64,000 nucleotides of DNA from Alistipes finegoldii (lineage in GTDB: Bacteria > Bacillota > Clostridia > Christensenellales > UBA1242), in assembly GCA_963614045.1 (NCBI GenBank), contig CAVEBU010000002.1, positions 676-64,675 of the forward strand, written 5' to 3'. A program made the translations under genes and the position numbers. Shown piece after piece: positions 3,198 through 64,000 of this stretch. Each line of letters begins with the position of its first letter. The stretch's first letter is position 1. Under the pieces are notes generated by a model. The model saw nothing but the letters and a program-made list of their open reading frames with translations. It did not search any database and was not told the DNA's origin.

Positions 3198-4451
3198 TTG
3201 AGCAAATACATAATTACTGGCGGGTACAAATTGGACGGGAAAATCGCTGTTGATTGTGCGAAAAATTCGTATCTTCCTATTATGGCGGGCAGTTTGATGT
3301 GTTCGGGCGAGGTCGTTTTGCGGAACTGCCCGAAGTTCGTGGATGTTGAGAATATGGCAAAAATTCTGCAAATTCTTGGCGTAAAAGTGCGATTCGAGGG
3401 GGACGCAATGATTTTGGATAGTTCGGGAGCGACGGCGAAATTCGTGCCTGTCGAGGTTGCGAAAATGCTCCGCTCGTCGATTTTTATGCTTGGGCCACTG
3501 CTGGCGAGATTTCGGACGGCTCGAGTTGCCTACCCTGGCGGTTGCGATATTGGGTTGCGCCCGATAGATTTGCATTTGCGGGGGCTAAGAGATTTGGGGG
3601 CGAAAATTCAAGAACTGCACGGCGTCATCAATTGCGACGGCAGTAAAATGGCGGGCGGAAAAGTTGTGCTTGATTTTGCGAGCGTTGGAGCGACGGAAAA
3701 TTTGATTATGGCATCCGTTTTGGGACATGGGCGGACGGAAATTCTCAATAGCGCTAGAGAACCTGAAATTGTGGATTTGGCGAATTTTTTGAATAAATGC
3801 GGGGCGAAAATCTACGGCGCTGGCACAAATTGTATTGAAATTGAGGCGGTGCAACGCTTGAGTGGTTGCGAATATACTCCGATTGGCGACCGCATAATTG
3901 CGGGTACATATTTGGTTGCGACGGCGATTACGGGGGGTAAAATTGAGATTTCGGGGGTAAATCCTCAAATTTTTGCCAATTTAATTGACAAATTGCATAA
4001 TTCTGGTTGCGTTTTTGGTATAAAAAGTGGTAAAATTTATATGCGGAGTCCTAAGGTTTTGAAAAGCGTGGGTTTCGTTGAAACGGAAGTTTATCCTGGC
4101 TTCCCGACTGATTTGCAAGCGCAAATGCTTTCGCTTATGGCTGTCGCTCGTGGTTGCTCGATTATTCAAGAGAATCTGTTTGAGGCGAGGTTTAAATCTG
4201 TCCCCGAACTGATTAAAATGGGGGCGAGCATTCGTGTCAAAGAGAGGTCGGCAATTGTTGAGGGTGTGCCGTTTTTGAGCGGGGCGGAAGTTTTTGCGAA
4301 AGATTTGCGGGGCGGGGCGAGTTTGGTTCTTGCAGGGCTAAACGCTCATGGGTACACGACTGTGAACGATATTTTTCACATCGAGCGAGGGTATTGCGAT
4401 TTGGATAAGGCGCTCAATAGCTTGGGGGCGTGCATTAAAAGAGAGGATTAG
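3198..4451 (+). CDS. murA: UDP-N-acetylglucosamine 1-carboxyvinyltransferase
   Basis: 417 aa with a TTG start. The catalytic-Cys loop YPGGCDIGLRPIDLHL is present, and similarity to MurA runs the full length. Confidence 0.93.
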   Translation: MSKYIITGGYKLDGKIAVDCAKNSYLPIMAGSLMCSGEVVLRNCPKFVDVENMAKILQILGVKVRFEGDAMILDSSGATAKFVPVEVAKMLRSSIFMLGPLLARFRTARVAYPGGCDIGLRPIDLHLRGLRDLGAKIQELHGVINCDGSKMAGGKVVLDFASVGATENLIMASVLGHGRTEILNSAREPEIVDLANFLNKCGAKIYGAGTNCIEIEAVQRLSGCEYTPIGDRIIAGTYLVATAITGGKIEISGVNPQIFANLIDKLHNSGCVFGIKSGKIYMRSPKVLKSVGFVETEVYPGFPTDLQAQMLSLMAVARGCSIIQENLFEARFKSVPELIKMGASIRVKERSAIVEGVPFLSGAEVFAKDLRGGASLVLAGLNAHGYTTVNDIFHIERGYCDLDKALNSLGACIKRED

Positions 4452-5428: not shown

Positions 5429-6484
5429 TTATTTAAGCGGAATATTTCTAAAATTTGTTAAAATTTCGTAAGGAATTGTGTGACATCCGCTTGCGAGGAT
5501 ATTTGCGTTTAATGTAGGTAAGTCGCTCAAAATTGTAGCATAGTCGCCAATTTTTGCGGGTATCCCCCCAATTTCTGCAAAAGTTGCTTCCATACATATA
5601 TTACCGACGATTTTTGCGGGGCGGTTATTTATCAGCACGAAACCGTCTTTTCCCCACAGCCGTGGCAAGCCTTTTGCGTACCCGATTGCGAGGGTTGCGA
5701 TATGTGTTTTTTCTGTTGCAATATGTTCTAAACCGTAGCCGATATAGTCGCCTTTTTGAACCTCTTGAATCGCTATTATTTTTGCATAAACTTGCATTAC
5801 AGGTTTTAAATATTCATTACCGTATCCATATAGCGCAAGCCCGCAACGAACCATATTCATATGTTCGGCGGGGTGGGTTAGGGTGTTTTGCGTGTTGCAA
5901 AAATGCCTAGTTATTACGCTTGGGAGGTGGTCGCTTAAGTTGTGAAAAACGGCAATTTGATTTTCCGCACGCAAGTCCATAAAGCCGTCCCCCGAACCAA
6001 AATGCGAGTAAATTCCTGTGAGGCGAGCGTGGGGGAGTTTGCGTTGCGTGATGGCAAGGATTTCGTCTTTTTGTGACACGCCGAAACGATTCATTCCGCT
6101 GTTGATTTGAAGATGGAAATAAGCGATTTTGTTGAGTTTGCGGGCGGTCGAATTTAGCGTAAGTAGTTCGTCCAAACTTTGCACGCTAAATGTTGCGTTT
6201 AGGCGAATTGCGTCCGCTAGTTCGTGCTTACTTACGGGGCTTAAAATTAGGCAAGGTTTCGAGGGGTGGCGTGTTTTTAGGGCGATTGCCTCAAGGTTAT
6301 TTGCAACTGCAAAACAGTCGATTTTTTCGCTAATTAAATCGCTAATTTTGTTCGCATTGTGGCCGTAAGCGTCACTTTTTACGACGGCACAAAGTTTGCT
6401 TTTGTGAAGTTTTTTGCGTAAAAAATTAATGTTAAACAATAAATTTGCACGATTTATGGTCTTAAAACAGTCTTTTTTGGGCAT
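5429..6484 (-). CDS. alr: alanine racemase
   Basis: PLP-lysine motif AVVKSDAYGHNA (consensus AVVKANAYGHG); 351 aa; GGAGGG RBS. Confidence 0.9.
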   Translation of the reverse strand: MPKKDCFKTINRANLLFNINFLRKKLHKSKLCAVVKSDAYGHNANKISDLISEKIDCFAVANNLEAIALKTRHPSKPCLILSPVSKHELADAIRLNATFSVQSLDELLTLNSTARKLNKIAYFHLQINSGMNRFGVSQKDEILAITQRKLPHARLTGIYSHFGSGDGFMDLRAENQIAVFHNLSDHLPSVITRHFCNTQNTLTHPAEHMNMVRCGLALYGYGNEYLKPVMQVYAKIIAIQEVQKGDYIGYGLEHIATEKTHIATLAIGYAKGLPRLWGKDGFVLINNRPAKIVGNICMEATFAEIGGIPAKIGDYATILSDLPTLNANILASGCHTIPYEILTNFRNIPLK

Positions 6485-6565: not shown

Positions 6566-7942
6566 ATGGCAAAATTAGTTTATGATTTTAGCAACTTATT
6601 AGGTGATAATTTGGGCAATAAAAAAGCACTCTCACGACAAGAGATATGCGAAAATTCGTATATTGCGAGCGAAATTTTGGCAAATGTTTTTGTGAATTCG
6701 ACCCCTGAACACAAGGCTGTTTTTGACATTTTAGACGAAGTTAATTTGGCTAAAATCAAGCAACTAGCTGGTGATGTTCGTAACGAATGCGAGGATTTTG
6801 TTGTGCTTGGAATTGGCGGTTCTTCGCTTGGAAGCTGTGCGATTTTTAATGCGCTAAAAAATATAGGATATAATTATCAGCCACGTGAAATTCGTGGAGC
6901 GCCTCGCTTCTTTGTTGAGGATAGTGTTGACCCTGAATCTGTTGCGGGATTGCTTGCGATGATTGATTTGGAAAAGACGATTTTTTGCGTTGTTAGTAAG
7001 AGCGGAAAAACTACGGAAACACTGACGCAGTTTCTGTATATGCGTGATTTGTGCGAGACGAAATTCGGCGAAAATTGGGTTAAACACTTCGTTATTTTGA
7101 CTGACGATAATGAGAATTTTTTGCATAATTATGCGAAAGCAAACGGCTTAAGAACGTTGTTAATTCCTACAAAATTGGGCGGAAGATATTCGGTTTTGAG
7201 TGCGGTGGGTATGTTTCCGTCTGCGGTATTGGGGCTTGATGTTGAGGCGATTATTTCGGGAGCAAAATCTATGCTTGAAATCGGGAAACGGCAAAATATT
7301 TGGGAAAACGCACCGCTTTTGAGTGCTTTATGCAACTTTTTCAACTACAAAAAGGGCAGTAATATCACCGTGATGATTCCGTATAGCGAATCTTTGAGCG
7401 TTTTTGATGACTGGTTTTGTCAACTTTGGGGCGAGAGTATCGGGCGAAATGTTACGGCTGACGGTCGGGCGTTGACGGGCGACGAAAGAATTGGGCAAAC
7501 ACCGATTCAGGTGACGGGGCCGAGCGTCCAGCATAGCCAATTTCAGTTGTATTTAGAGGGGCCTGACGACAAGACGTTTACTTTTGTGGGTATCAAGAAT
7601 TTCAAACAAGATTTAGCTCTGCCGTCGCAATTGGGTGAAGTTTTTGGCAAAAATATTTCGCCTGGTAGAACTTTTGGCGACTTGCTAAATGTGGAACGTG
7701 TTTCCGCCGAACGCTCGCTGAAGCTTTTCAAAAAACCGAGCGAGAGCATTATCGTGGAGCGACTTGATGAAGATTCTATGGGCAAATTGTTTATGTTTTT
7801 TATCCTCAAAATGCTTTTTACTGGCGCATTGCTAAATATTAACCCGTTCGGACAGCCCGCTGTGGAGAGTATCAAGAGCGAGGTTGCTAGGCTGATTGAC
7901 GAAAATTTGCTATTTGAGGGTGAAAATTGCATAGAAATTTAA
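6566..7942 (+). CDS. pgi: glucose-6-phosphate isomerase
   Basis: GIGGSSLG and VSKSGKTTET motifs; ATG 6566 is preceded by AGGAG. Confidence 0.9.
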   Translation: MAKLVYDFSNLLGDNLGNKKALSRQEICENSYIASEILANVFVNSTPEHKAVFDILDEVNLAKIKQLAGDVRNECEDFVVLGIGGSSLGSCAIFNALKNIGYNYQPREIRGAPRFFVEDSVDPESVAGLLAMIDLEKTIFCVVSKSGKTTETLTQFLYMRDLCETKFGENWVKHFVILTDDNENFLHNYAKANGLRTLLIPTKLGGRYSVLSAVGMFPSAVLGLDVEAIISGAKSMLEIGKRQNIWENAPLLSALCNFFNYKKGSNITVMIPYSESLSVFDDWFCQLWGESIGRNVTADGRALTGDERIGQTPIQVTGPSVQHSQFQLYLEGPDDKTFTFVGIKNFKQDLALPSQLGEVFGKNISPGRTFGDLLNVERVSAERSLKLFKKPSESIIVERLDEDSMGKLFMFFILKMLFTGALLNINPFGQPAVESIKSEVARLIDENLLFEGENCIEI

Positions 7943-7980
7943 AAATTTTTTGAATTTTTAGAGAAATTTGCAAAAAACCC

Positions 7981-8009
7981 TTGAAATATTGTAAAAAATG
8001 TGATATACT
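7981..8009 (+). promoter_or_regulatory. promoter of tRNA-Lys(CUU)
   Basis: TTGAAA (7981-7986), 17 nt, TATACT (8004-8009) with TGTGA upstream; the tRNA starts at 8019. Confidence 0.6.
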
Positions 8010-8018
8010 AATAAGGTA

Positions 8019-8094
8019 TATCCAACATGGACAATTAGCTCAGTTGGTAGAGCAACTGACTCTTAATCAGTGGGTCCAGAGTTCGAGTCTCTGA
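8019..8094 (+). tRNA. tRNA-Lys (anticodon CTT), CCA encoded
   Basis: Cloverleaf read by eye: acceptor GGACAAT/ATTGTCC, anticodon arm ACTGA-CTCTTAA-TCAGT, T arm CAGAG-TTCGAGT-CTCTG, 3' ACCA. Confidence 0.9.
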
Positions 8095-8138
8095 TTGTCC
8101 ACCAAGATAGGAAAAGATGCTGTAGTGGTGTCTTTTTT
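8081..8138. repeat. 58-bp direct repeat, copy 1 (last 14 nt of tRNA-Lys + 44 nt downstream)
   Basis: Identical to 8406-8463 at every position compared by eye. Confidence 0.9.
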
Positions 8139-8151
8139 TGTTACCACTGAT
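8134..8151. repeat. 18-nt inverted copy of the tRNA-Lys anticodon arm
   Basis: CCACTGATTAAGAGTCAG is the exact reverse complement of tRNA positions 8046-8063 (CTGACTCTTAATCAGTGG). Confidence 0.9.
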
Positions 8152-8271
8152 TAAGAGTCAGGAGTGGGGTACCCCGCAAAATTGAAGATTTTGTGGGGAG
8201 AGGAGGTACCAAGCGAGAATGAGCGTGCTTACTGTCCAAAAGGACTAAGCAAGCGAATTAGCGAAGTTTGT

Positions 8272-8419
8272 GTGCCGACGAAATCAGTGGGTCCAGAGTT
8301 CGCACCGTAACCGACTATTCGTCGCTTACTCTCACGGCCCGAACGCAAAACACATTTTTGCGTCCCGTTCGGGCTAAAAATTAGCCACTGGCTAATTTTC
8401 TTAACGCTTCACGCCCTGA
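8272..8419 (+). pseudogene. partial second copy of tRNA-Lys 3' half, interrupted in the T-loop by 113 nt
   Basis: 8272-8292 equals tRNA 8055-8075. Unrelated structured sequence follows at 8293-8405, and CTGATTGTCCACCA resumes at 8406. There is no 5' half. Confidence 0.75.
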
Positions 8420-8463
8420 TTGTCCACCAAGATAGGAAAAGATGCTGTAGTGGTGTCTTTTTT
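8406..8463. repeat. 58-bp direct repeat, copy 2
   Basis: Identical to 8081-8138. Confidence 0.9.
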
Positions 8464-8684
8464 TGTTACCACTAAATTTAAAAATTAAATTAAGTATATA
8501 ATGACTCGATTTTTGATTAAATAATTGTATAAATCAGCGAGCTGTTTGGGTAATTTGTAAAGTCGGTGGGGTGATTAGAATTTTTGCGGTAATTCTAATC
8601 ACATCAAAATTGAGTTCGATGGCGGGCATATTTTTGTTAAAATTCATAAAAAACTACTTAATTTCGTGTGATTTTAGTATAAAA

Positions 8685-8716
8685 AAGTAAAAAACGCAAT
8701 AAAAACACTGCGTTTT
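8685..8716 (-). terminator. intrinsic terminator after degV (8724)
   Basis: AAAACGCA / TGCGTTTT stem (8691-8698 / 8709-8716), with a T-rich run following on the minus strand. Confidence 0.5.
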
Positions 8717-8723
8717 TGTGGAT

Positions 8724-9608
8724 TTATTCGGCGAACGGACAGCGCTTGTTTGCAAAAAACGCAATCAAAACGGAACCCGAACCGACGTGTGCGCCAACGA
8801 TTGGCGAGAGAAGACGGCGTTTGATTGTGCAATCGGGTGCGATTTTTTTGATAATTTCCGTCATTTCGTCCGCAGTTGCGCTTTCGTTGGCGTCGATTAT
8901 GTATACGTTTTTGGAAATCGTCGGGTCAAAATTCTCCTTAAAATACTCGCCCATAACTTGCAGACTTTTTTTGATACCTTTCTGCTTATTTATCATATGC
9001 AAGCCCCCGCCGTAAATCGTGATAATCGGCTTGATATTGAGAATTGAGCCGAAAAAAGCGGTTGCGGAACCGATTCGCCCTGTGCGTTTCAGCGAATTTA
9101 AATCGTCAACGACGAGGTAGCCTTGAATTAAATTTTTCATTTCGTTCAAGTCGTCGGCGTTCTCCGTAATCGACTTGCCTGCGAGTTTGTTTTCCGCCAT
9201 ACGCTCCGCCAAAAGCCCCATTGGAGCGGTGGCGAGTAGGGAGTCAACGGCGACCAAATCGACGTCAGGGAATCCCGTCTTGAGATTTCTGATAGCTGTT
9301 TGAACGGACTGAAAAGTTGATGACAAACCGCTAGACAAACAAACATAAAGGGCAGATTTTCCGCTCGCAAGATATGGCCTAAAGAAATCTTCATAAAGCG
9401 CAGGGTTGATTAAAGACGTAGAAAATGAGCATTTTTGCTTAATTTTATCATAAAAATCCACCAAATTCATACCATTTTCGTCTGCAGTGTATGTTTGTGG
9501 CTCGTTATCGAGCGTTACTTCCATCGGCAAAAATTTAATATCGTGCTGTTTTGCGAATTCGCCGTCAATGTCGCCCGCAACGTCCATAAACAATAAATAA
9601 TCTCTCAT
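8724..9608 (-). CDS. DegV family fatty-acid-binding protein
   Basis: 294 aa with a DegV-type LSSGLSSTFQS serine motif and family-length similarity. Confidence 0.85.
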   Translation of the reverse strand: MRDYLLFMDVAGDIDGEFAKQHDIKFLPMEVTLDNEPQTYTADENGMNLVDFYDKIKQKCSFSTSLINPALYEDFFRPYLASGKSALYVCLSSGLSSTFQSVQTAIRNLKTGFPDVDLVAVDSLLATAPMGLLAERMAENKLAGKSITENADDLNEMKNLIQGYLVVDDLNSLKRTGRIGSATAFFGSILNIKPIITIYGGGLHMINKQKGIKKSLQVMGEYFKENFDPTISKNVYIIDANESATADEMTEIIKKIAPDCTIKRRLLSPIVGAHVGSGSVLIAFFANKRCPFAE

Positions 9609-38295: not shown

Positions 38296-38371
38296 TGGTG
38301 ACCCGTCCGCGACTCGAACGCGGGACAACTTGATTAAAAGTCAAGTGCTCTACCTACTGAGCTAACGGGCC
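38296..38371 (-). tRNA. tRNA-Lys (anticodon TTT)
   Basis: The reverse complement GGCCCGTTAGCTCAGTAGGTAGAGCACTTGACTTTTAATCAAGT...GACGGGTCACCA folds as a cloverleaf. Confidence 0.9.
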
Positions 38372-38374
38372 ATA

Positions 38375-38449
38375 TGGCAGGGGTGGCAGGATTTGAACCT
38401 ACGGGTGCTAGAGTCAAAGTCTAGTGCCTTACCGCTTGGCTACACCCCT
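38375..38449 (-). tRNA. tRNA-Gln (anticodon TTG)
   Basis: Reverse complement AGGGGTGTAGCCAAGCGGTAAGGCACTAGACTTTGACTCTAG...CACCCCTGCCA. Confidence 0.85.
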
Positions 38450-38494
38450 ATAATACGGGTCTTATACAAGCTGGTGCTTGATGCCCAAAAGATG

Positions 38495-38569
38495 TGGCAG
38501 GGGCAGAAGGATTTGAACCCACGAATGCTTGAGTCAGAGTCAAGTGCCTTACCGCTTGGCGATGCCCCT
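38495..38569 (-). tRNA. tRNA-Gln (anticodon CTG)
   Basis: Reverse complement AGGGGCATCGCCAAGCGGTAAGGCACTTGACTCTGACTCAAG...GCCCCTGCCA. Confidence 0.85.
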
Positions 38570-38643
38570 ACGATGTAGTTTACTTTTGGTAAACTAGATA
38601 CTCAAGGAACTTGTTCTCATAAAAGACAGCTTAAATCTGTCAC

Positions 38644-38720
38644 TGGGGTGAATAGTGGGGTTCGAACCCACGACCTCCAGAGCCACAATCTGGCGCTCTC
38701 CCAGCTGCGCTATATCCACC
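38644..38720 (-). tRNA. tRNA-His (anticodon GTG) with encoded G-1
   Basis: Reverse complement GGTGGATATAGCGCAGCTGGGAGAGCGCCAGATTGTGGCTCTGG...TATTCACCCCA, with an extra 5' G opposite the discriminator C. Confidence 0.85.
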
Positions 38721-38797
38721 ATAATTGAGTGATACAAGTTAAGAAGTCCCCAAAAAGCGAACTGCATTTAGAAAACCAGAGAGTTATTCGTCTGGAA

Positions 38798-38874
38798 TGG
38801 TGCGCCCAGAGAGACTCGAACCCCCAACCTTCACCTTAGAAGGGTGTTGCTCTATCCTGTTGAGCTATGGGCGC
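38798..38874 (-). tRNA. tRNA-Arg (anticodon TCT)
   Basis: Reverse complement GCGCCCATAGCTCAACAGGATAGAGCAACACCCTTCTAAGGTGA...TGGGCGCACCA. Confidence 0.85.
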
Positions 38875-55600: not shown

Positions 55601-56498
55601 AGGAGTTGCAAAGCCTTTTTTGAAATGGGCTGGCGGTAAAGGACAACTTATGAATACATTTGATGAAATGTTCTCAAATGAACTTATAGAAGACAAAATA
55701 AAAACATACATCGAACCTTTCGTTGGTGGTGGTGCAGTCCTTTTCCATGTTTTACAAAATTACCACATTGAAAAAGCCTACATAAACGACATAAATAAAG
55801 AACTTATAAATTGTTATCGTTGCATAAAAGCGGATGTAAATGAAGTTATAAAGCAACTTGAAGTTCTTGAAAAAGAATATTTATCTTGTGATGATAGGAC
55901 AAATTATTTTTATAACGTTCGGGACAGATATAACTCAATTCATTTAAATGGACATTACGATTTTGAAAAGTGCGCTGATTTTATATTTTTAAACCACACT
56001 TGTTTTAATGGACTTTATAGAGTTAACAAAAGTGGTAAATTTAATGTGCCACATGGCAAATATAAAAATCCTTTGATTTGTGATAAAGAAAATTTGTTAC
56101 TTTGTTCAAAATTGTTGCAAAAAGTTGAGATTAGTTTTGGTAGTTATGAACAAGTTTTAAGCAATGCAGATAAAAACACTTTCGTTTATTTTGACCCACC
56201 TTATCGCCCACTTATTGAGAATAATTCATTTGTAAGTTATGATAAGTCAGGGTTTGATGATAAAGACCAAATTGAACTTGCTGAAAATTTTAAAGATTTA
56301 GATAAAAAAGATTGTTTACTTATGCTTTCAAATTCCGACCCTAAAAACACAAATGAAAATGATAACTTTTTTGATGACTTATATAATGGCTTTGAAATTG
56401 AAAGAGTTTATGCAAAACGAATGATTAACTGTCAGGCAAGTAAGCGTGGAGATATAACAGAAATTGTTGTAATGAATTACAAAAGGAGAAAAAAATGA
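55593..56498 (+). CDS. Dam/DpnM-like (D12 class) N6-adenine DNA methyltransferase
   Basis: KPFLKWAGGKGQL, EPFVGGGAV and FVYFDPPY motifs. Confidence 0.85.
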   Translation: MCKGVAKPFLKWAGGKGQLMNTFDEMFSNELIEDKIKTYIEPFVGGGAVLFHVLQNYHIEKAYINDINKELINCYRCIKADVNEVIKQLEVLEKEYLSCDDRTNYFYNVRDRYNSIHLNGHYDFEKCADFIFLNHTCFNGLYRVNKSGKFNVPHGKYKNPLICDKENLLLCSKLLQKVEISFGSYEQVLSNADKNTFVYFDPPYRPLIENNSFVSYDKSGFDDKDQIELAENFKDLDKKDCLLMLSNSDPKNTNENDNFFDDLYNGFEIERVYAKRMINCQASKRGDITEIVVMNYKRRKK

Positions 56499-57149
56499 AT
56501 ATTTTTACAAACATAACAGATTCTTTGATTTATGAAAAAGAATTTAATAAAAACAAAAATGCTATAGAACTGGTTAGATTTAATTCTAATTATGATAAAG
56601 TAATTGCCCATCACGATAAAGAAAATCTATGTTTTAGATTTTTCAAGGAATTGAATTTAAAAAGAAATGACAAGTTGATTGATAACCACGATAATATTTA
56701 TTTTGTTGATGAGGTGATTGTTAATCAACCATACTTAATAAAAAAAAGACGGATTAATATCTGGAGAGAAAGAATTTCAAACAACAATTGTAAAGTATAC
56801 AAAACAGTTAATAGAATTACCAGACAGCATAAAACAATGTGTTAAAATTGAAACAAATATTAACATTGATGCAAAAAATTCCCAATTCTCAGGTGGATTA
56901 GCTAATTATAACATAAATCAAACAGCTTCATATAATCAAATTTTTGACTTTATGAAAGTGTTATGTAACAATACTTTCAACGTAAAAGAATTGCAACCAT
57001 TTTTACATGGGATTGAAGGCAGTATGAAAGATAAAAAGCCTATTGAAGAAAAATGGTACAAAAAGTTTTTTAAATTTATGGGCACTCAATTGTTAGAAAT
57101 TGCAAAGCAATTTATTGTAGCATATGCTACATCGCTAGCAACCAAATAG
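56495..57149 (+). pseudogene. unknown gene split by a +1/-2 frame change at an A8 run (ORFs 56495-56845 and 56742-57149)
   Basis: ATGA overlap with the upstream methylase. The second frame is open from 56742, directly after the A8 run at 56740-56747, and runs to 57149. Removing one A fuses the two into about 218 aa. Confidence 0.6.
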
Positions 57150-57158
57150 GAGAAAAAT

Positions 57159-58016
57159 ATGAAAAGAAATTTTAAAGAATGGTTTAATACTTTCACTGAT
57201 AGCATTGCGACTTACGAATATTATACAGATTTCAATACAGTCTATAAAAACATTAACAAAATTAAAGTTGAATTAAATATAATGAATTCACTTGTTGGTT
57301 CTAAAAATATTGAAAAAGATTTTGACAACCTCTTCAACAGTTATCCAGAAATTAGAAAATGTTTACCACTTTTAATTGCTGTGAGAGAAAAAGAAATTAA
57401 AGTTGTTGATGATGGTGAAAAGTTAAAATACAACTTTACAAATATTGACGATATTGAACTTTTGAAAAGATTTATGAGAAAAACTGGTTTGTTTGACTTA
57501 ATTTCAAGTCATTTAGTAAACAATCTTGTAGATTATGCTACTGGTGTTGAAGTTGGTCTTGGCTCTAATGGAAGAAAAAATCGTGGAGGGCATCTTATGG
57601 AAGATGTTTTGCAAGGTTTTATTGAGAAAGAAGGTTTTGTTTTAAATCAAACTTATTTTAAAGAAATGTACTTGAAAGATATTGAGAACAAATGGAACAT
57701 TGATTTATCTTCTTTATCCAATCTTGGCAAAGTTGCAAAAAGATTTGATTATGTTGTAAAAACTGATAATTGTATTTATGCTTTTGAAACAAACTTTTAC
57801 TCTAGCTCAGGTTCAAAACTTAATGAAACTGCGAGAAGTTACAAAATGATTGCAGAAGAAAGCAAACATATTAAAGGATTTGCTTTTGTTTGGGTTACTG
57901 ATGGTTTAGGTTGGGTTGATGCTAGAAACAACCTTGAAGAAACTTTTGATGTAATGGACAACCTTTATAACATTAAAGATTTGTCTAATGGCAAGTTGAA
58001 GGAAATTTTAAAATAG
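57159..58016 (+). CDS. DpnII/MboI-family type II restriction endonuclease (GATC expected)
   Basis: YYTDFNTVYKNINKIKVELNIMNSLVGSKNIEKDF, TGVEVGLGSNGRKNRGG and NFYSSSGSKLNETARSYKMIAEE closely track the DpnII sequence as I recall it. Confidence 0.85.
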   Translation: MKRNFKEWFNTFTDSIATYEYYTDFNTVYKNINKIKVELNIMNSLVGSKNIEKDFDNLFNSYPEIRKCLPLLIAVREKEIKVVDDGEKLKYNFTNIDDIELLKRFMRKTGLFDLISSHLVNNLVDYATGVEVGLGSNGRKNRGGHLMEDVLQGFIEKEGFVLNQTYFKEMYLKDIENKWNIDLSSLSNLGKVAKRFDYVVKTDNCIYAFETNFYSSSGSKLNETARSYKMIAEESKHIKGFAFVWVTDGLGWVDARNNLEETFDVMDNLYNIKDLSNGKLKEILK

Positions 58017-58736
58017 ATGGAAGAAAAATTTGAATTAGAAACTAACACTGTTTGGTCGTTTCCAAATCGTGGCAAATGGGCAACCCATGATGCAAAATAT
58101 CGCGGAAACTTTTCCCCTTATGTTGCTAAAAATATCATTTTGAGATATTCGAAGCCAAATGATTTGGTGCTTGACCAATTTGTTGGTGGTGGTACTACTC
58201 TTATTGAATGTAAATTAAATAATCGTAATGCAATTGGTATTGACATAAACCCAAAGGCTGTTGAGATTACAAAGAGCAAACTTGATTTCGATTGTGAATT
58301 TAACAATGAAATAAAAGTTGAACTTGGTAATGCTTGTGATTTGAAAAATATTCAAAATGAAAGTGTCGATTTAATTTGTACCCATCCACCTTATGCAGAT
58401 ATTATTAAATATAGCGAAGATATTGATGAGGATTTATCTCATCTAAAATATAAAGATTTTCTTGTGGCAATTGAAAAAGTTGCTAGCGAGTGTTATAGGA
58501 TTTTAAAGAAAGATAAATTTTGTGCTATTGTTATGGGTGATACTCGCAAAAACGGAATGGTTCAACCACTCGGTTTTGAAGTTATGCAAAGATTTATAAA
58601 CGCAGGCTTTAAACAAAAAGAAATTATCATAAAAGAACAACACAATTGTAAAGCAACAGGTTTTTGGAAAACAAATAGTGAAAAATACAACTTTTTGCTA
58701 TTGGCACATGAGTATGTGTTTGTGTTTAAGAAATAG
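58017..58736 (+). CDS. SAM-dependent DNA methyltransferase, FxGxG before (H)PPY
   Basis: LVLDQFVGGGTTLIEC (motif I) lies about 75 aa before LICTHPPYADI (motif IV). The start abuts the REase stop. Confidence 0.7.
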   Translation: MEEKFELETNTVWSFPNRGKWATHDAKYRGNFSPYVAKNIILRYSKPNDLVLDQFVGGGTTLIECKLNNRNAIGIDINPKAVEITKSKLDFDCEFNNEIKVELGNACDLKNIQNESVDLICTHPPYADIIKYSEDIDEDLSHLKYKDFLVAIEKVASECYRILKKDKFCAIVMGDTRKNGMVQPLGFEVMQRFINAGFKQKEIIIKEQHNCKATGFWKTNSEKYNFLLLAHEYVFVFKK

Positions 58737-58770
58737 TATTTATTTTAATATGTTAAATGAAGGATTGAAG

Positions 58771-59883
58771 ATGAAAAAAGAAAAATTAAAACCTTTACTA
58801 AAGTATCCTGGAGGAAAAACTTCAGAATTGGGTGTTATTAATGAAAATTTGCCCTCTAATATTAATAATTATATTGAGCCTTTTGTTGGCGGTGGTGCAG
58901 TCTATTTCGATTTAAATAATAAGAATAATTTTATCAATGATAAATCTGAAGAACTAATTTTATTATATAAATATATAAAAGAGAATAATCCTACTTTTTA
59001 TAATGAACTTGACATTATAATATCTAATTGGAATAAACTCAAAGAATTAGCAAATAATGATCGAATAACAAATTTATACATTAAATATAGAAATGATGAG
59101 AAATTTGATATGCATCAAGAATTGCAAGATATCATAAACATTGGTATAGAGAAAGTACCTATGTTTACATTGAGAAAAAGTATTAAATTCGAAAGTTTCC
59201 TAGTAGATTGTCTATATCAAAAATTCAGTTTAATAAAAAGAAACGAAATTAAGAAAAAAGAATTATTAGAGCATAGTCCATTGATAGATAATATAGAGGC
59301 TGGAATAAAAGCGGCATACTATACATATTTAAGGGATGTATATAATAAACCAAGTGAATATAATAAATTAACAAGACCTAGAAAAGTCGCTATATATTTA
59401 TTTATAAGGGAGTATTGCTACTCTTCAATGTTTAGATTTAATAAAAATGGTGGATTTAATGTGCCATACGGAGGAGTTTCGTATAATAAAAAAACTTTAG
59501 AAACAAAAATCACATATTATAAGACAAAAGAAGTTAAAAACATTTTAAACCATACTCAATTATATAATGAAGATTTTTATAGTTTTTTAAATAAAATTAA
59601 GATAGATAAGAATGACTTTATGTTTTTAGATCCTCCTTACGATACAACCTTTAGTGAATATGATAGAAATTCATTTGGGATGGAAGATCAAAAAAGATTG
59701 GCAAATTATTTAATCAATGAATGTCCATGTAGATTTATGTTAATTATAAAGAAAACTGATTTTATAGAGAGCTTATATATTAATCAGGGGCTAAAAATAT
59801 TAGAACAAGATAAAACTTATTTTGTTAGTTTTAAAAATAGAAACAAAAAAGATGTAAAACATTTAATTATAATGAATTATTAG
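58771..59883 (+). CDS. second D12-class N6-adenine DNA methyltransferase with enlarged middle region
   Basis: ATG 58771. Motifs LLKYPGGKTSE, EPFVGGGAV, FNVPYGG and FMFLDPPYD are present; about 370 aa against about 300 for the first Dam-like gene. Confidence 0.8.
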   Translation: MKKEKLKPLLKYPGGKTSELGVINENLPSNINNYIEPFVGGGAVYFDLNNKNNFINDKSEELILLYKYIKENNPTFYNELDIIISNWNKLKELANNDRITNLYIKYRNDEKFDMHQELQDIINIGIEKVPMFTLRKSIKFESFLVDCLYQKFSLIKRNEIKKKELLEHSPLIDNIEAGIKAAYYTYLRDVYNKPSEYNKLTRPRKVAIYLFIREYCYSSMFRFNKNGGFNVPYGGVSYNKKTLETKITYYKTKEVKNILNHTQLYNEDFYSFLNKIKIDKNDFMFLDPPYDTTFSEYDRNSFGMEDQKRLANYLINECPCRFMLIIKKTDFIESLYINQGLKILEQDKTYFVSFKNRNKKDVKHLIIMNY

Positions 59884-59892
59884 GAGATTAAT

Positions 59893-61383
59893 ATGGAAGA
59901 TAAAAGATACACTGAAGAAGATTTAATAGATCCAGCATTGTTTCAGATGTATAAACGTGGTGGGAAAATAACCACCGGTGAACTTATAATAGAATTAATC
60001 AATGTCCTAAAACCAACAGGACAAGATGCAGAGTTGTTATTTGGGAGAAAAGATAACAGATTTAGTCAAAAGGTTCGAAATTTAATATCGCATAAAAAAA
60101 TTTATCCTAAATATGTCGAATATGATGGTGATACCTCGTTAATGAGTATTAATAGCGAAGGAGAACAAAGACTTTTTGCATCTAATTATTTTTTATATAA
60201 CTCAAATAAATTAACAGAAAATAGTTATGATGAGCAAAATGATGAGGATCTTTCACCAATTGATGAAAGTGATGATTTTGAAAACATAGACAAAAAATAT
60301 GTAGAATGTGAACCTGTTAACTATTCGGTATATGAGTTAAAAAGGCGCTATGATAGAGCCAAACTAAATAATAGTAATGGGGTTATTAAATTAGATGATT
60401 CCTTTCAGCGCAATACGGTTTGGACGAGGAAACAAAAAAGTCAATTAATAGAAAGTTTACTTTTGGGAATTCCTATTCCATATATATATGTATATGAAGG
60501 CAAAAATAGCAATCTTATAGTTATTGATGGTAGACAAAGATTATCTGCTATATTTGATTTTTTAGATAATAAATATTCACTTACTGGGCTAGAATTTTTA
60601 ACAAAATTAGATGGAAAAAAATGCAAAGATTTAGTAGACAATTTGCTTGAAGATTTAGAAAAGTTTAAAGCAAAATTGGAAGATGCCCATCTTCATGTGA
60701 TAAAAGTAGGATTTGAAACTTCCGAAATTTTTAAGTTAAAAATATTTCAAAGAGTAAATCAGGGTGGAACAAAATTAAATAACCAAGAATTGAGACATGC
60801 TCTACACCAAGGAGCTATTACCAATATGCTAAAGGAGTTATCGGATTCGTTAGATATATTGTCATCTGTGAGTGCAAAAAGCAGAATGAAAGATAGATAT
60901 TTGATTCTAAGATATATATCAATGAGGTTATATATTCTAAATCAATTAAAATTTTATGGCAACAAAGGAAACTTAAATATACCATATAATGAAATTAATA
61001 CATTTTTAGCAAATTCTATGGATGCAATAAATACTTTTGATGATAAACAAATGCTCGAAATAAAAATTGATTTTGTTGAATCTTATAAGTTAGCTTTAGA
61101 GTTGTTGGGAGACAAAGCTTTTAGATTAGAAGAGAATTCTCCTATTAATATGATATTATTTGAAATCACATTATTATTTATTAGTCTGTCAAAAGCAAAA
61201 CATGTTTCTCTTGACAATTTATCATGTATGATAGATGATTTTAAAAATTACGATAAAGAAAATATAGATTCTGATGGAAATACTCCTTTTTTTCAAAATA
61301 TAAAATATCACAGAGATTCTAAGAAAAACTTTGAAGAAAGGATAGAATGGCTCAATAATATTATTTTAAAATATAAAGGATAA
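59893..61383 (+). CDS. DUF262 (ParB/GmrS-like NTPase) protein with N-terminal winged-helix-like domain; no DUF1524/HNH half seen
   Basis: DDSFQRNTVWTRKQKSQLIESLLLGIPIPYIYV...IDGRQRLSAIFDFL is the DUF262 core. The N-terminal ~150 aa resembles Mrr_N-type wHTH (GELIIELINVL...RFSQKVRNLISH). Confidence 0.75.
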   Translation: MEDKRYTEEDLIDPALFQMYKRGGKITTGELIIELINVLKPTGQDAELLFGRKDNRFSQKVRNLISHKKIYPKYVEYDGDTSLMSINSEGEQRLFASNYFLYNSNKLTENSYDEQNDEDLSPIDESDDFENIDKKYVECEPVNYSVYELKRRYDRAKLNNSNGVIKLDDSFQRNTVWTRKQKSQLIESLLLGIPIPYIYVYEGKNSNLIVIDGRQRLSAIFDFLDNKYSLTGLEFLTKLDGKKCKDLVDNLLEDLEKFKAKLEDAHLHVIKVGFETSEIFKLKIFQRVNQGGTKLNNQELRHALHQGAITNMLKELSDSLDILSSVSAKSRMKDRYLILRYISMRLYILNQLKFYGNKGNLNIPYNEINTFLANSMDAINTFDDKQMLEIKIDFVESYKLALELLGDKAFRLEENSPINMILFEITLLFISLSKAKHVSLDNLSCMIDDFKNYDKENIDSDGNTPFFQNIKYHRDSKKNFEERIEWLNNIILKYKG

Positions 61384-61388
61384 CTATT

Positions 61389-62749
61389 ATGTTACGACAG
61401 ATAAAACTGCAAAATTTTAAGTGTTTCAAAAAAGTAAATATTAATTTAAAAAACTTCAATGTCATTTGCGGACCAAATTCATCGGGAAAAACAACTATAA
61501 ATCAAAGTATATTGCTACATTTACAAAATAATAGGATAGATAAAGAGCATTTTATAACAAATGGTAAAATGTACATTTTGATGATTATGCTGAGATAAAA
61601 AATTCAACTACTTCATCTGATAAAAGTGTTGTTATAGAATTGTTAGATAACAAAAATAGAAAACGAAAAATTATTATCACTTCAGAAGATGATGGAAAAA
61701 AAATAAAGTGTAAAGAATATGTTTCTGAATTTGAAATGTTAGATGAAAAAAATATTTTTTATTTATCAGCGAACAGAATAGGGCCAGAAGATGTTTACAA
61801 CAAATTTACTAATGAACTTATTGAACAATATGGGCAAAATGCCATAGGATTTTTAGCAAAGTATCAAAATCAACCGATAGATGAAAAATATGCATTTATT
61901 AAATCTCCAACAAAAGATTATCAATTTATTAAAGAAATAAATTATTGGCTTAATGAAATAGTTGAGGAACAAGTCCATGTGACAGAACTTTCTAGAACAG
62001 ATAAAAGTACGGCAACGTACAGCCATAAAATAAATCCGTTAGAAGTTAGGAATAAGAATACTGGTAGCGGTGTAAGTTACGTAATTGCTATTATTGTAAT
62101 GACTTTTAGTCTTGCAATTAAAGAAAACACCGAAAAACCTCTTATTATAATTGAAAATCCTGAAATACATCTTCATCCACTAGGGCAAATAAAGTTAATG
62201 ACATTCTTAAAGTTCATGTCTCAATTTTGTCAAATTATTCTAGAAACACATAGTGACCATATTATAAAAAATTTTTTGCAGTATACAAATGGTCAAGTTA
62301 TAAAACTAAATAAAGATTTTGTGCCGATTTACTATAATAAAAGAAGTAAATACACATTAAAAACATTGACTTTAGGAGAAGTCCAATGGGAAGCTTTTGA
62401 TTTGCCAACCATAGATTTCCATATTGCTTTGCTCTCATATTTACAAGCAAAATTTAATCAATTTTCTTTAAATCACTTAGATGATTTAATTAGAGACACA
62501 GGAACATTTAAGTCAAACTGCGAGAAATATGATACTAAATGTATGAGATACAAAAATCATATAGATTCAAAGTCCAAATTTGAAACATTGCCTATTTATA
62601 TTCGAAATGTCATAGATCATCCTGTCAGAAAGAAAGGAAGTGGCGAACCTCCAAGGAAAAAATATAGAAAAACTGAAAGCGAATTTTATGAGGCTTTAAA
62701 AAATTCAATTCAATTTATGCTAGATATAATAAAAGAAAAAGGTTGGTAA
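61389..62749 (+). pseudogene. ABC/AAA_21-type ATPase (DUF3696-like) interrupted by a 1-nt frame change; C-terminal domain with RNxxxH motif
   Basis: Walker A ICGPNSSGKTT lies in ORF 61389-61598. Walker B/D-loop LIIIENPEIHLHP and H-loop ETHSDH lie in ORF 61640-62749. The second frame is open from 61568, so an extra A in the A4 run at 61566-61569 would restore ...NGKNVHFDDYAEIKN.... Confidence 0.75.
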
Positions 62750-62769
62750 TTATTAGTATGGCATTTAAA

Positions 62770-62827
62770 CGTGTGCTTGTTTTGATACAAGTCGGTGTCG
62801 CTTCGCTCCACCGAAGACAAGCACACG
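62770..62827 (+). other. long nested hairpin just after the island operon
   Basis: CGTGTGCTTGT (62770-62780) pairs with ACAAGCACACG (62817-62827); the inner pair is TCGGTG / CACCGA. Confidence 0.6.
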
Positions 62828-62865
62828 AACATAAAAACAATTAAGTAAAAAGGCATATACAAACA

Positions 62866-62931
62866 TTGCCGAGTGAAAAAGAGGTTTGCGCGCAGGCTTT
62901 TCGCAAAACCTCTTTTTTTACCACTCGGCAA
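62866..62931 (+). terminator. 66-nt double-stem hairpin with internal T7 run (terminator-like)
   Basis: Outer stem TTGCCGAGTG / CACTCGGCAA; inner stem GAGGTTTGCG / CGCAAAACCTC followed by TTTTTTT. Confidence 0.55.
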
Positions 62932-63329
62932 ATTGTATCGTAATTTGTTTTCAAATTTCAATATTGTTGTTTTTGAAAAGATATTAATTTTTTTCAAAAG
63001 ACATTTTTCAAATGCATAACCATAAGCATTGTTAATGTTCTTAGTTATTCCAAAATTATTAAAGTATGTTTTCTTTACTTAACCTCCTTTACTCGCTTTT
63101 GGTGTCTCTTGTAGCACAGTTTTCCCCTAAGTCAAGGGAAACAAATATTGTTTATGTAATCTACTAGATTGAATATTCAGTCTAGTATTTTTTTATTGCA
63201 ATAATATTTCAACCCAATATTTCTTTCTTCTTCCTTGACTTCTTGTATTAGAAGTTCAAGGGGTTAGTGTGTAATCCAAACTCTGCTCCAACGACTTTGC
63301 CAAAAGGCGGATAAAGGAGAAAAATATAT

Positions 63330-63959
63330 ATGGAAAAAAGAAAAAATTTAGTATTAAATGATGATGTAAAAATTAGTTTGGATAACATCGAAGATTTATC
63401 TAAAATTATTGCACTATCAAGTTTAAGAAACTTTGAAAAGTTTGCTTATAGCAACTCAAAGTTAGTTGAAAAATTGCACAAGCAATTACAAAAAGACATT
63501 TGTCATCATAGTGAGTTAGACAACTATTTTGATGCTTACGATTTAGTCCAAGAAGCGAGTTTGTTTTTGTTAAACTTTATAGGTCGTAAACTTGGAGATA
63601 CTTGCACTTTTATAAAATCTACTTCAAAAGCACCACAAATTATACCAATTAGAATGGCTTGTTTTAAGACATTGTTTGCATATCTAAGAAAAGAAATGAA
63701 AAACGGAACTACCGAAGATGAAGAATACCTCGAATTCGTTCCGGCAGAAAATACACTTGACAAAGAAGAACCTGACTACACAAAAGTAAAAGAAATTATT
63801 AGAAAAATTGTAACAAACGAACTTGAAAAGAAAATTTTGGAATACACATACAACGGAGTTGAAGTTAAAGATATTGCCGAATTCCTAAACATTAGTATTT
63901 GGAAGATTTACAAACGACGAAGAAAATTCAAAGACAGATATTTAGCATATTGTGTTTAA
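63330..63959 (+). CDS. sigma-70-like protein (region 2 and region 4 remnants), mobile-element type
   Basis: DLVQEASLFLLNF (region-2-like) and LEKKILEYTYNGVEVKDIAEFLNISIWKIYKRRRKF (region-4 HTH). Confidence 0.5.
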   Translation: MEKRKNLVLNDDVKISLDNIEDLSKIIALSSLRNFEKFAYSNSKLVEKLHKQLQKDICHHSELDNYFDAYDLVQEASLFLLNFIGRKLGDTCTFIKSTSKAPQIIPIRMACFKTLFAYLRKEMKNGTTEDEEYLEFVPAENTLDKEEPDYTKVKEIIRKIVTNELEKKILEYTYNGVEVKDIAEFLNISIWKIYKRRRKFKDRYLAYCV

Positions 63960-64000
63960 TATTGTGTTTAATAACTTAATACCAAAAAACAAATTCCCAT

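Follow-up and report, generated by a model that had tools for sequence, protein, structure and literature searches.

A probable mobile-element scar beside a tRNA-Lys(CUU) gene of an uncultured gut Clostridium and the candidate RNA family that it exposes

What is the short, gene-free piece of DNA that separates two identical copies of the 3' end of a tRNA-Lys(CUU) gene in a 64,000-nt stretch of contig CAVEBU010000002.1 (hereafter, the window, i.e., the whole stretch that was analyzed)? An earlier note on this DNA had offered two options, a nested, decayed integration scar and a small structured RNA element associated with the tRNA gene. The first proved the better of the two, although its anatomy is that of a mosaic and not of a nested integrase product: the locus is probably an inert mosaic scar of mobile-element DNA on the 3' side of tRNA-Lys(CUU), likely to be non-functional. 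The decayed scar is favored because one part of the insert, denoted E1, belongs to a family of ~110-nt structured repeats that is otherwise seen only in phage, integrative and conjugative element (ICE) and plasmid DNA. We also consider it rather likely that E1 is a real, previously undescribed RNA family.

The insert (8149–8415, 267 nt) lies between the two copies of a direct repeat and consists, in this order, of an inverted tRNA piece, E1 (8165–8282), a sense tRNA piece (8282–8302) and a segment denoted E2 (8303–8415). The features of the locus are the following:

8029–8104, + strand: intact tRNA-Lys(CUU) gene with encoded CCA (ARAGORN; Rfam tRNA, 73.5 bits)
8091–8148, + strand: copy 1 of the direct repeat, with the 3'-terminal 14 nt of the tRNA and a 44-nt trailer, 58/58 identical to copy 2
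8144–8161, + strand: inverted copy of the tRNA anticodon arm, an 18/18 reverse complement of 8056–8073
8165–8282 (118 nt), + strand: E1, a full-length member of the ~110-nt structured repeat family, matched by the covariance model R1
8282–8302, + strand: sense copy of tRNA positions 37–57, 21/21 identical to 8065–8085 and carrying the lineage-specific A52
8303–8415 (113 nt), + strand: E2, which replaces 3–5 nt of the T-loop and forms two stable hairpins (8337–8374 and 8377–8399)
8416–8473, + strand: direct repeat copy 2, the tRNA 3' end and the trailer with hairpin T2 (8431–8467), at 58/58 identity

All features described in the earlier note are present, each of its positions being 10 nt too low (the tRNA starts at 8029, not at 8019); the inverted anticodon arm had been missed. 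The 58-bp perfect direct repeat is as described, and the first 14 nt of its second copy (8416–8429) are identical to the last 14 nt of tRNA-Lys. Likewise confirmed is the internal tRNA copy, which begins immediately 3' of the anticodon, reaches into the 5' part of the T-loop and is broken there by 113 unrelated nt. These repeats are far beyond chance in BLAST comparisons within the window (E = 4e-28 for the 58-bp repeat, 5e-6 for the 21-nt copy and 3e-4 for the 18-nt inverted copy). The insert is indeed richer in GC, by 11 points (49.4% vs 38.2% in the window), and packed with hairpins (8172–8198, 8337–8374 and 8377–8399), its predicted folding being far above that of shuffled sequences (z = -5.4 for the tRNA strand and -5.7 for the opposite strand). 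It was also correctly said to lack an open reading frame (ORF) of note: the sole frame, of 48 codons with a GTG start (8164–8310), is not conserved in the relatives of E1, and an exact-protein look-up returned no record for it. The insert contains no integrase, excisionase or other element gene.

The first clue to E1 came from a BLAST search of phage records, in which an unannotated record of 4.6 kb from human faeces, named "Bacteriophage sp.", matched 8165–8207 at 95% identity. This record is actually a Tn1549-like conjugation module that encodes CD1107-like, DUF4315 and Cys-rich VLP proteins. Local alignment stretches the similarity to 8165–8281, with a score of 101 compared to 38 ± 5 for shuffled sequences. 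We built the covariance model R1 on 13 aligned E1 variants; the window copy scores 83.5 bits (E ~1e-20) over model positions 1–111, and a hidden Markov model built without the window copy still finds 8166–8281 (E = 1.4e-12, positions 2–110 of 111). The R1 consensus comprises a hairpin of 12 bp (HP1) that includes a conserved G.U pair, the invariant, Shine-Dalgarno-like AGAGGAGG, a long-range helix enclosing a second hairpin (HP2), and the tail CGACGAG. The same layout is found in the window, i.e., HP1 (8172–8198), the invariant motif, the long-range helix around the variable HP2 and the tail CGACGA. This copy is a unique, lower-GC variant with its own HP2; it forms 24 of the 27 consensus pairs (family range 23–27), and its own minimum-energy fold gives the family architecture.

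The pairing of E1 was examined in two sets of sequences. Among 22 distinct sequences, 95.1% of the cells are paired and 20 of the 27 pairs show compensatory changes, compared to 43–51% of paired cells when the partners are slid; none of 500 shuffles was as good. A second set of 78 distinct sequences gave 96.1%, 23 of 25 pairs, 41–49% with slid partners, and again 0 of 500 shuffles. The latter set was drawn from 95 full-length R1 matches in 74 IMG/VR loci, none of which is in the seed; the loci stem from a looser IMG/VR scan that had yielded 87 stretches, and R1 found the 95 copies in these. It should be noted that the alignment of the 78 sequences was fitted to R1, which biases it toward the structure; the margins are large nonetheless. 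In HP2, the sequence varies among copies while the pairing is preserved. In addition, a second, intergenic E1 is present in one ICE module (L023, 6320–6427, - strand; L-numbers are labels of comparison contigs) at a site that is empty in the near-identical modules L010 (~1947–1990), L016 (~8400–8440) and L032 (~6410–6450). The empty sites hold a small hairpin, GGGAC ATTTT GTCCC, and E1 of L023 stands in place of ACATTTT, showing that E1 is gained or lost as a block. Together, the varying but paired HP2 and the presence or absence in L023 indicate a discrete unit of ~110 nt and not a fragment of a gene.

The carriers of E1 are IMG/VR viral contigs, one of which encodes portal and major-head proteins, Tn1549-like ICE modules, a Subdoligranulum variabile plasmid and another faecal record; a metagenome pattern scan found 22 human-gut contigs that carry the Tn1549-like module with E1. 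Altogether, there are ~120 full-length copies in the roughly 110 contigs examined, with nine in L103 (1394–9872), six in L112, four in L055 and three each in L124 and L045, nearly all on one strand. E1 occurs in none of the cultured phages (INPHARED), in only one of the PLSDB plasmids and, apart from the window, next to no tRNA gene. Of the checks that the earlier note had proposed, the search for other copies led to this mobile-element family, and the Rfam search yielded no family beyond tRNA: Rfam 15 gave only tRNA in 7900–8800 (E up to 10) and in the whole window, and no match in four E1-bearing contigs. A literature search with the E1 core string returned unrelated papers only. As a side observation, the core string ATTTTGTGGGGAGAGGAGG occurs without HP1, directly 3' of a TTGACA-like motif, at 1092–1110 of L035 and at the same site in L036, L039, L040, L041 and L047. 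These are lower-GC viral contigs in which R1 scores 12 bits only, so that the sites may be unrelated or may represent a distant, reduced variant.

Several other identities of E1 were considered and ruled out. (i) A protein-coding piece of the CD1107-like gene, because the frames are not conserved among copies while the stems covary. (ii) A template or variable repeat of a diversity-generating retroelement, because the two copies in L042 differ by transitions and not by adenine-specific changes. (iii) An IS200/IS605-type or TA-duplicating miniature element, because there is no consistent target, end-hairpin spacing or duplication. (iv) A group II intron, suggested by GTGCG after E1 in L017, because there is no Rfam intron match.

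On the viral contigs, E1 behaves like a repeated inter-cistron signal. It often starts within a few nucleotides of the stop codon of the upstream ORF, and the next ORF begins at about +52, after AGAGGAGG, or just beyond the end of E1. Such placement between a stop and the next start was seen, for example, after the portal gene and after an 890-codon ORF. In the CD1107-like gene, E1 is found in frame between the signal peptide and the conserved domain, in L010 (3257–3365, - strand) and in 20 further contigs (L013, L015, L016 and L018–L034). In L014, a stop inside E1 closes the CD1107-like frame, and in both L014 and L017 an additional hairpin (TGACAGGTGCC(A/T)CCTGTCA) follows. On the opposite strand, the conserved G.U pairs would turn into C.A mismatches, so that the fold belongs to the transcribed strand; the same pairs point to a strand-specific role, probably as RNA. 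In its home elements, E1 is probably an inter-gene RNA signal for mRNA processing, stability or translation start. The window copy is found outside this setting, since neither a ribosome-binding site nor an ORF lies 3' of it and it does not occupy the usual slot of a phage or ICE operon, behind a stop codon and ahead of the next start. Unlike the other copies, it has no gene on either side: the inverted anticodon arm and then GAG precede it on the left, and on the right it directly abuts the tRNA piece that begins at position 37.

E2, the other large segment of the insert, has a predicted fold of -36.6 kcal/mol. Its second hairpin resembles a generic two-way terminator, and its matches are generic terminator look-alikes only. 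We found no relatives of E2 in the phage, plasmid, IMG/VR or Joint Genome Institute (JGI) metagenome collections and, in IMG/VR, no match to the junction between the tRNA piece and E2; the junction between E1 and the tRNA piece had a single chance match there, in a coding region (L050). Searched as a whole against phages and plasmids, the insert gave the E1 match and one chance match only, and no other copy of it was present in any collection searched.

The next line of evidence is comparison with related genomes. The nearest ones are uncultured Christensenella-like metagenome-assembled genomes (MAGs), with 67–70% identity of phosphoglucose isomerase (PGI). In the window, tRNA-Lys is surrounded by housekeeping genes in the order murA/aroA-type EPSP_synthase-family gene, ftsQ-like gene, alanine racemase (alr), PGI (pgi), tRNA-Lys, DegV and TetR; an exact-protein look-up of DegV returned no record. 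The order alr-pgi-tRNA-Lys is kept in the Christensenellales relatives L003, L006 and L009, and L006 also keeps murA, ftsQ, degV and tetR. As the earlier note had recommended, orthologous tRNA-Lys loci were inspected for empty sites, and none of these three relatives contains any part of the insert; they are distant, with 61–67% PGI identity. The sequence downstream of tRNA-Lys differs in each of the three, which makes the site on its 3' side a variable spot. A part of the trailer (GTGTCTTTTTTTGTT) is orthologous in L003 (76% identity over 63 nt, in an alignment that starts at 8414); because it follows tRNA-Lys there, too, the trailer within the 58-bp repeat is taken to be native host terminator sequence. 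The promoter of the tRNA gene is also conserved, its block being kept 5' of tRNA-Lys in L002, L003, L006 and L009:

7981–8009, + strand: promoter-like site of the tRNA gene, sigma-70-like, with TTGAAA, a 17-nt spacer, TATACT and an extended -10 TG

On the reading as a scar, the working gene comprises nothing beyond the promoter, the intact tRNA and the terminator of copy 1. Pair 52:62 in the T-stem of the tRNA is A:U in the window and G:C in all relatives compared. This is a compensated double change specific to the window lineage (window 8029–8104 vs L003 7464–7539, L006 5462–5536 and L009 5459–5534). Another observation concerns the spacers of L003 (7595–7613) and L009 (5582–5601), which are unrelated except for a common 20-nt block, GGACTCGAACCC(C)AAGGGGG, just 3' of the tRNA-Lys terminator. 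This block is the reverse complement of the T-arm-like GGGTTCGAGTCC; it may derive from another tRNA fragment in inverted orientation or be what is left of a gene on the opposite strand, and it parallels the inverted arm in the window.

A succession of events that would produce the scar can be outlined as follows. A phage or conjugative element of the E1-bearing type would have recombined at the tRNA gene, duplicating the 3' portion of the tRNA with its native trailer. Nearly all of the element would then have been lost; what can be read in the sequence is one complete E1 abutting a tRNA half that starts just after the anticodon. This leftover half is split in the T-loop by the 113 unrelated nucleotides of E2, and 13 nt of the anticodon arm, in inverted orientation, follow the end of the first terminator, the two meeting at a microhomology of 5 nt, presumably through a template switch during replication or repair; both E2 and the inverted arm would have been added by further illegitimate events. 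The repeats might be identical owing to recency or to gene conversion from the live tRNA. That the scar is inert is suggested by three considerations, namely, that E1 has lost its usual context here, that the relatives do not have the insert, and that, in any read-through transcript, the antisense piece would by prediction bind the anticodon arm of the tRNA more strongly than the tRNA folds.

The integrase-type insertion put forward in the earlier note is consistent with the duplicated tRNA 3' end, the intact tRNA at one side and the foreign composition of the insert, but no integrase is nearby and the junctions are not clean. A number of facts weigh against our preferred scenario. No element gene is left, so that integration is deduced from the repeat alone. 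The repeat sets in past the loop, with the 3' strand of the T-stem, and not at an anticodon-loop or T-loop crossover; it also includes the host terminator, which is atypical of attL/attR cores. The leftover tRNA half mixes the derived A52 with the ancestral-type C62 (a matter of two bases only), and a simple split of a functional half does not fit this combination. E2, for which no relatives were found, is only presumed to come from a mobile element. The 100% identity of the repeats and the intact E1 fold (24 of 27 pairs) would equally fit selection for function. Finally, all genomes compared past the tRNA have PGI identity of 70% or less, and the structure of the locus is taken from an assembled contig.

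The junctions of the insert bear on a different origin. CCACT forms the last 5 nt of repeat copy 1 and, at the same time, the first 5 nt of the inverted arm, i.e., the two are joined at a 5-nt microhomology; CCACT is the native end of the trailer, as it recurs before AAATTT in copy 2. The inverted arm copies a sequence located 72–90 nt away. An inverted arm at a microhomology suggests, as a signature read from the sequence, a template switch during replication or repair. Because its 18/18 match to the tRNA arm indicates copying, the arm is not a product of convergence on a T-box; a T-box riboswitch, considered in view of AAG in the loop of the inverted arm and of the T-box-like UGGGGUACCCCG, was ruled out, with no Rfam T-box match at E up to 10.

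The entire insert might accordingly be a patchwork made in one step, without an integrase, by serial template switches from a break or stalled fork just after the terminator: to the opposite strand of the anticodon arm, then to an E1 elsewhere in the cell, to tRNA positions 37–57, to the source of E2, and back to the tRNA. The final switch would land 58 nt upstream of the point of departure and so create the 58-bp duplication. This origin is a serious alternative because the repeat does not start in the loop, has the native terminator inside and is accompanied by no recombinase. It would also account for the short tRNA-derived pieces in both orientations, copied from less than 100 bp away; for their lineage-specific A52, which implies copying from the resident gene; and for the 100% identity of the repeated pieces, as expected of a single recent event. 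Conversely, the remaining junctions have microhomologies of only 0–1 nt, and distant templates would have to supply two long segments, of 118 and 113 nt, the former coinciding exactly with a complete E1. Moreover, CC at 8414–8415, just 5' of copy 2, fits the G:C-type T-stem of the relatives and not the present tRNA; these two bases are weak evidence, hinting that the second copy may predate the A52:U62 change. To our knowledge, multi-switch template events are poorly documented in bacteria. On balance, we regard the patchwork as unlikely, at something like one chance in a handful, and retain the eroded scar as the preferred interpretation.

The perfect direct repeats with the tRNA 3' end, flanking a cargo without ORFs, could also be read as working attL and attR sites of a miniature element, resembling a cis-mobilizable element (CIME), in which case a 325-bp unit would be excisable by an integrase encoded elsewhere. 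Cis-mobilizable elements without recombination genes of their own are known in streptococci. However, a circle of 325 bp is very small for synapsis by a tyrosine recombinase, the repeat does not contain the T-loop or anticodon-loop crossover region, the 64 kb hold neither a third copy of the 58-bp repeat nor an integrase (and the genes flanking the locus include no recombinase), and the collections searched have no further copy of the insert. We consider an excisable element of this kind highly improbable.

Structure of the locus at the RNA level was also evaluated. The trailer of copy 1 forms a G.U-rich hairpin, T1 (8106–8142), with a predicted energy of -14.1 kcal/mol overall and -7.1 for the core, followed by seven U. 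Transcription could conceivably read through this weak terminator into a functional RNA, in analogy to the tRNA-linked repeats of E. coli, with the repeated tRNA 3' end serving as a processing site that would free an RNA of ~280 nt containing E1. The order of tRNA, T1, RNA, copy of the tRNA 3' end and T2 mirrors that of rrA, rrB, rrF and the tRNA-linked repeats (PMC8144298). The consensus fold of E1 is intact, and the insert folds far better than its shuffled versions on the tRNA strand (z = -5.4), but the opposite strand folds equally well. Furthermore, the arrangement is conserved in no relative examined, the other E1 copies are not linked to tRNA, and the antisense piece is predicted to pair with the tRNA anticodon arm (-29.7 kcal/mol for the duplex compared to -25.2 for the tRNA fold), which would damage the tRNA. 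A functional read-through RNA is, in our estimate, improbable. Still somewhat less credible is domestication. In this reading, E1 would be an undescribed class of portable RNA module, made up of a hairpin, a Shine-Dalgarno sequence and a structured start region, that is placed between genes by phages and by conjugative elements in gut Clostridia, and the copy at tRNA-Lys would have become a small RNA of the host; its transcript would arise by read-through of the weak T1 and be cut back at the second copy of the tRNA 3' end, like the tRNA-linked repeat RNAs of E. coli. The structured RNA proposed in the earlier note survives in part: a covarying element is present, but its ~120 other copies are not adjacent to tRNA genes and the tRNA-Lys loci of the relatives do not contain it.

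An artifact has to be weighed as well, given that the source is a MAG. A short inverted copy with microhomology is a product of template switching by phi29 in multiple displacement amplification (MDA), repeats at a tRNA core are hard for de Bruijn assemblers, and the 21- and 58-nt repeats are near common k-mer sizes. The exact PGI protein is encoded on an NCBI contig of 65.3 kb as well as on short contigs from Logan, and the independent Logan contigs of the same organism all break within or next to the locus: L001 at tRNA position 35 and L012 at position 29, whereas L136 starts 16 nt inside copy 2, such that no independent contig covers 8064–8457. Close relatives are present in the samples SRR13434609, SRR19415659 and SRR19415678. 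The Logan breaks are, however, explained by branching at k = 31 on the conserved tRNA core and on the poly-T run, and not by the insert. The window E1, being a unique lower-GC variant, was not copied from a co-assembled GC-rich element, and an 18-nt inverted repeat with a 5-nt microhomology cannot join sequences in an assembly with k of at least 21. On both sides of the locus, the source contig (65.3 kb) goes on with the gene order of the relatives, alr-pgi-tRNA-Lys to the left and degV-tetR to the right. An assembly or amplification chimera is therefore, in our estimate, very unlikely. Two other features of the contigs proved uninformative as clues. The ends of L001 and L007 at 'GCAACTGACTCT' reflect in-branching at k = 31 from tRNAs that differ at position 5. 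In L002 (Christensenella sp. UBA4651, the closest named relative), tRNA-Lys is interrupted by a run of 101 N (3899–3999) that extends from position 30 to the T-loop. The ends of this run, at tRNA positions 29 and 54, are those expected if an assembler word of ~25 broke at the conserved core of the tRNA, and the run most likely represents a scaffold gap.

Other observations were made in the window outside the insert. A perfect 12-bp hairpin (GTGATTAGAATT ... AATTCTAATCAC) is located at 8571–8602, in the spacer of 250 nt that separates repeat copy 2 from the end of degV. Five tRNA genes are clustered at 38296–38874 on the - strand, namely, Lys(UUU), Gln(UUG), Gln(CUG), His(GUG) and Arg(UCU). In the final 8 kb (56001–64000), the GC content falls to 26–30%, compared to ~38–45% elsewhere, and this region may be a foreign or specialized island.

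Taken as a scar, the locus is nothing unusual and illustrates on a small scale the accumulation of mobile-element debris at tRNA genes; the part of interest is the E1 family that it exposes. The inverted fragment, joined at a microhomology, would be a clear trace left by template switching in this uncultured gut Clostridium. E1 lies exactly at gene junctions, both within the structural operons of phages and within the transfer operon of Tn1549-like elements, with no match in Rfam 15. If it is a true signal for mRNA processing or translation, it would provide a handle on gene expression in uncultured gut phages and a useful marker for mobile-element remnants such as this locus.

Among known systems, the closest counterparts of the locus are the attL/attR scars of phages and islands integrated at tRNA genes, for which the work of Williams in 2002 (Nucleic Acids Res 30:866) is reportedly the source to name. 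Shared with these scars are the direct repeat of the tRNA 3' end, the intact tRNA on one side and the compositionally foreign DNA in between, absent in relatives. In contrast to them, the locus has no integrase or other genes, a cargo of only 267 bp and a repeat that runs from after the T-loop through 44 nt of native terminator, and its insert holds extra tRNA fragments, sense and inverted. The tRNA-linked repeats of E. coli include the small RNAs rrA, rrB and rrF, which lie between the terminators T1 and T2 and are made by terminator read-through (PMC8144298). The locus resembles these repeats in having, 3' of a tRNA or rRNA gene and in the same orientation, a sequence that ends in a copy of the gene 3' end, between two terminators; in E. 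coli the repeats share 18–19 bp and are conserved across Enterobacterales (PMC8144298), whereas here they comprise 14 nt of tRNA and 44 nt of trailer. Unlike the E. coli repeats, the unit is absent from L003, L006 and L009 and contains mobile-element sequence.

For E1 itself, two kinds of elements offer a comparison. Miniature inverted-repeat transposable elements (MITE), repetitive extragenic palindromes (REP) and Rickettsia palindromic elements are small non-autonomous repeats that tolerate insertion into genes. With these, E1 shares a short, hairpin-rich unit without ORFs that is present or absent at defined sites and sometimes lies in frame within ORFs; in contrast to these types, it has no terminal inverted repeats or target-site duplication that we could see, and its copies are strongly co-oriented with transcription. 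Phage T7 has RNase III processing hairpins between its genes, and T4-type phages have repeated intergenic stem-loops. From sequence and predicted structure alone, E1 may be likened to these phage hairpins, with which it shares many co-oriented copies at gene junctions and a structure that is more conserved than the sequence. Compared to them, E1 is longer (~110 nt), consists of two domains, contains the invariant, Shine-Dalgarno-like AGAGGAGG, and is also found in conjugative elements and within ORFs.

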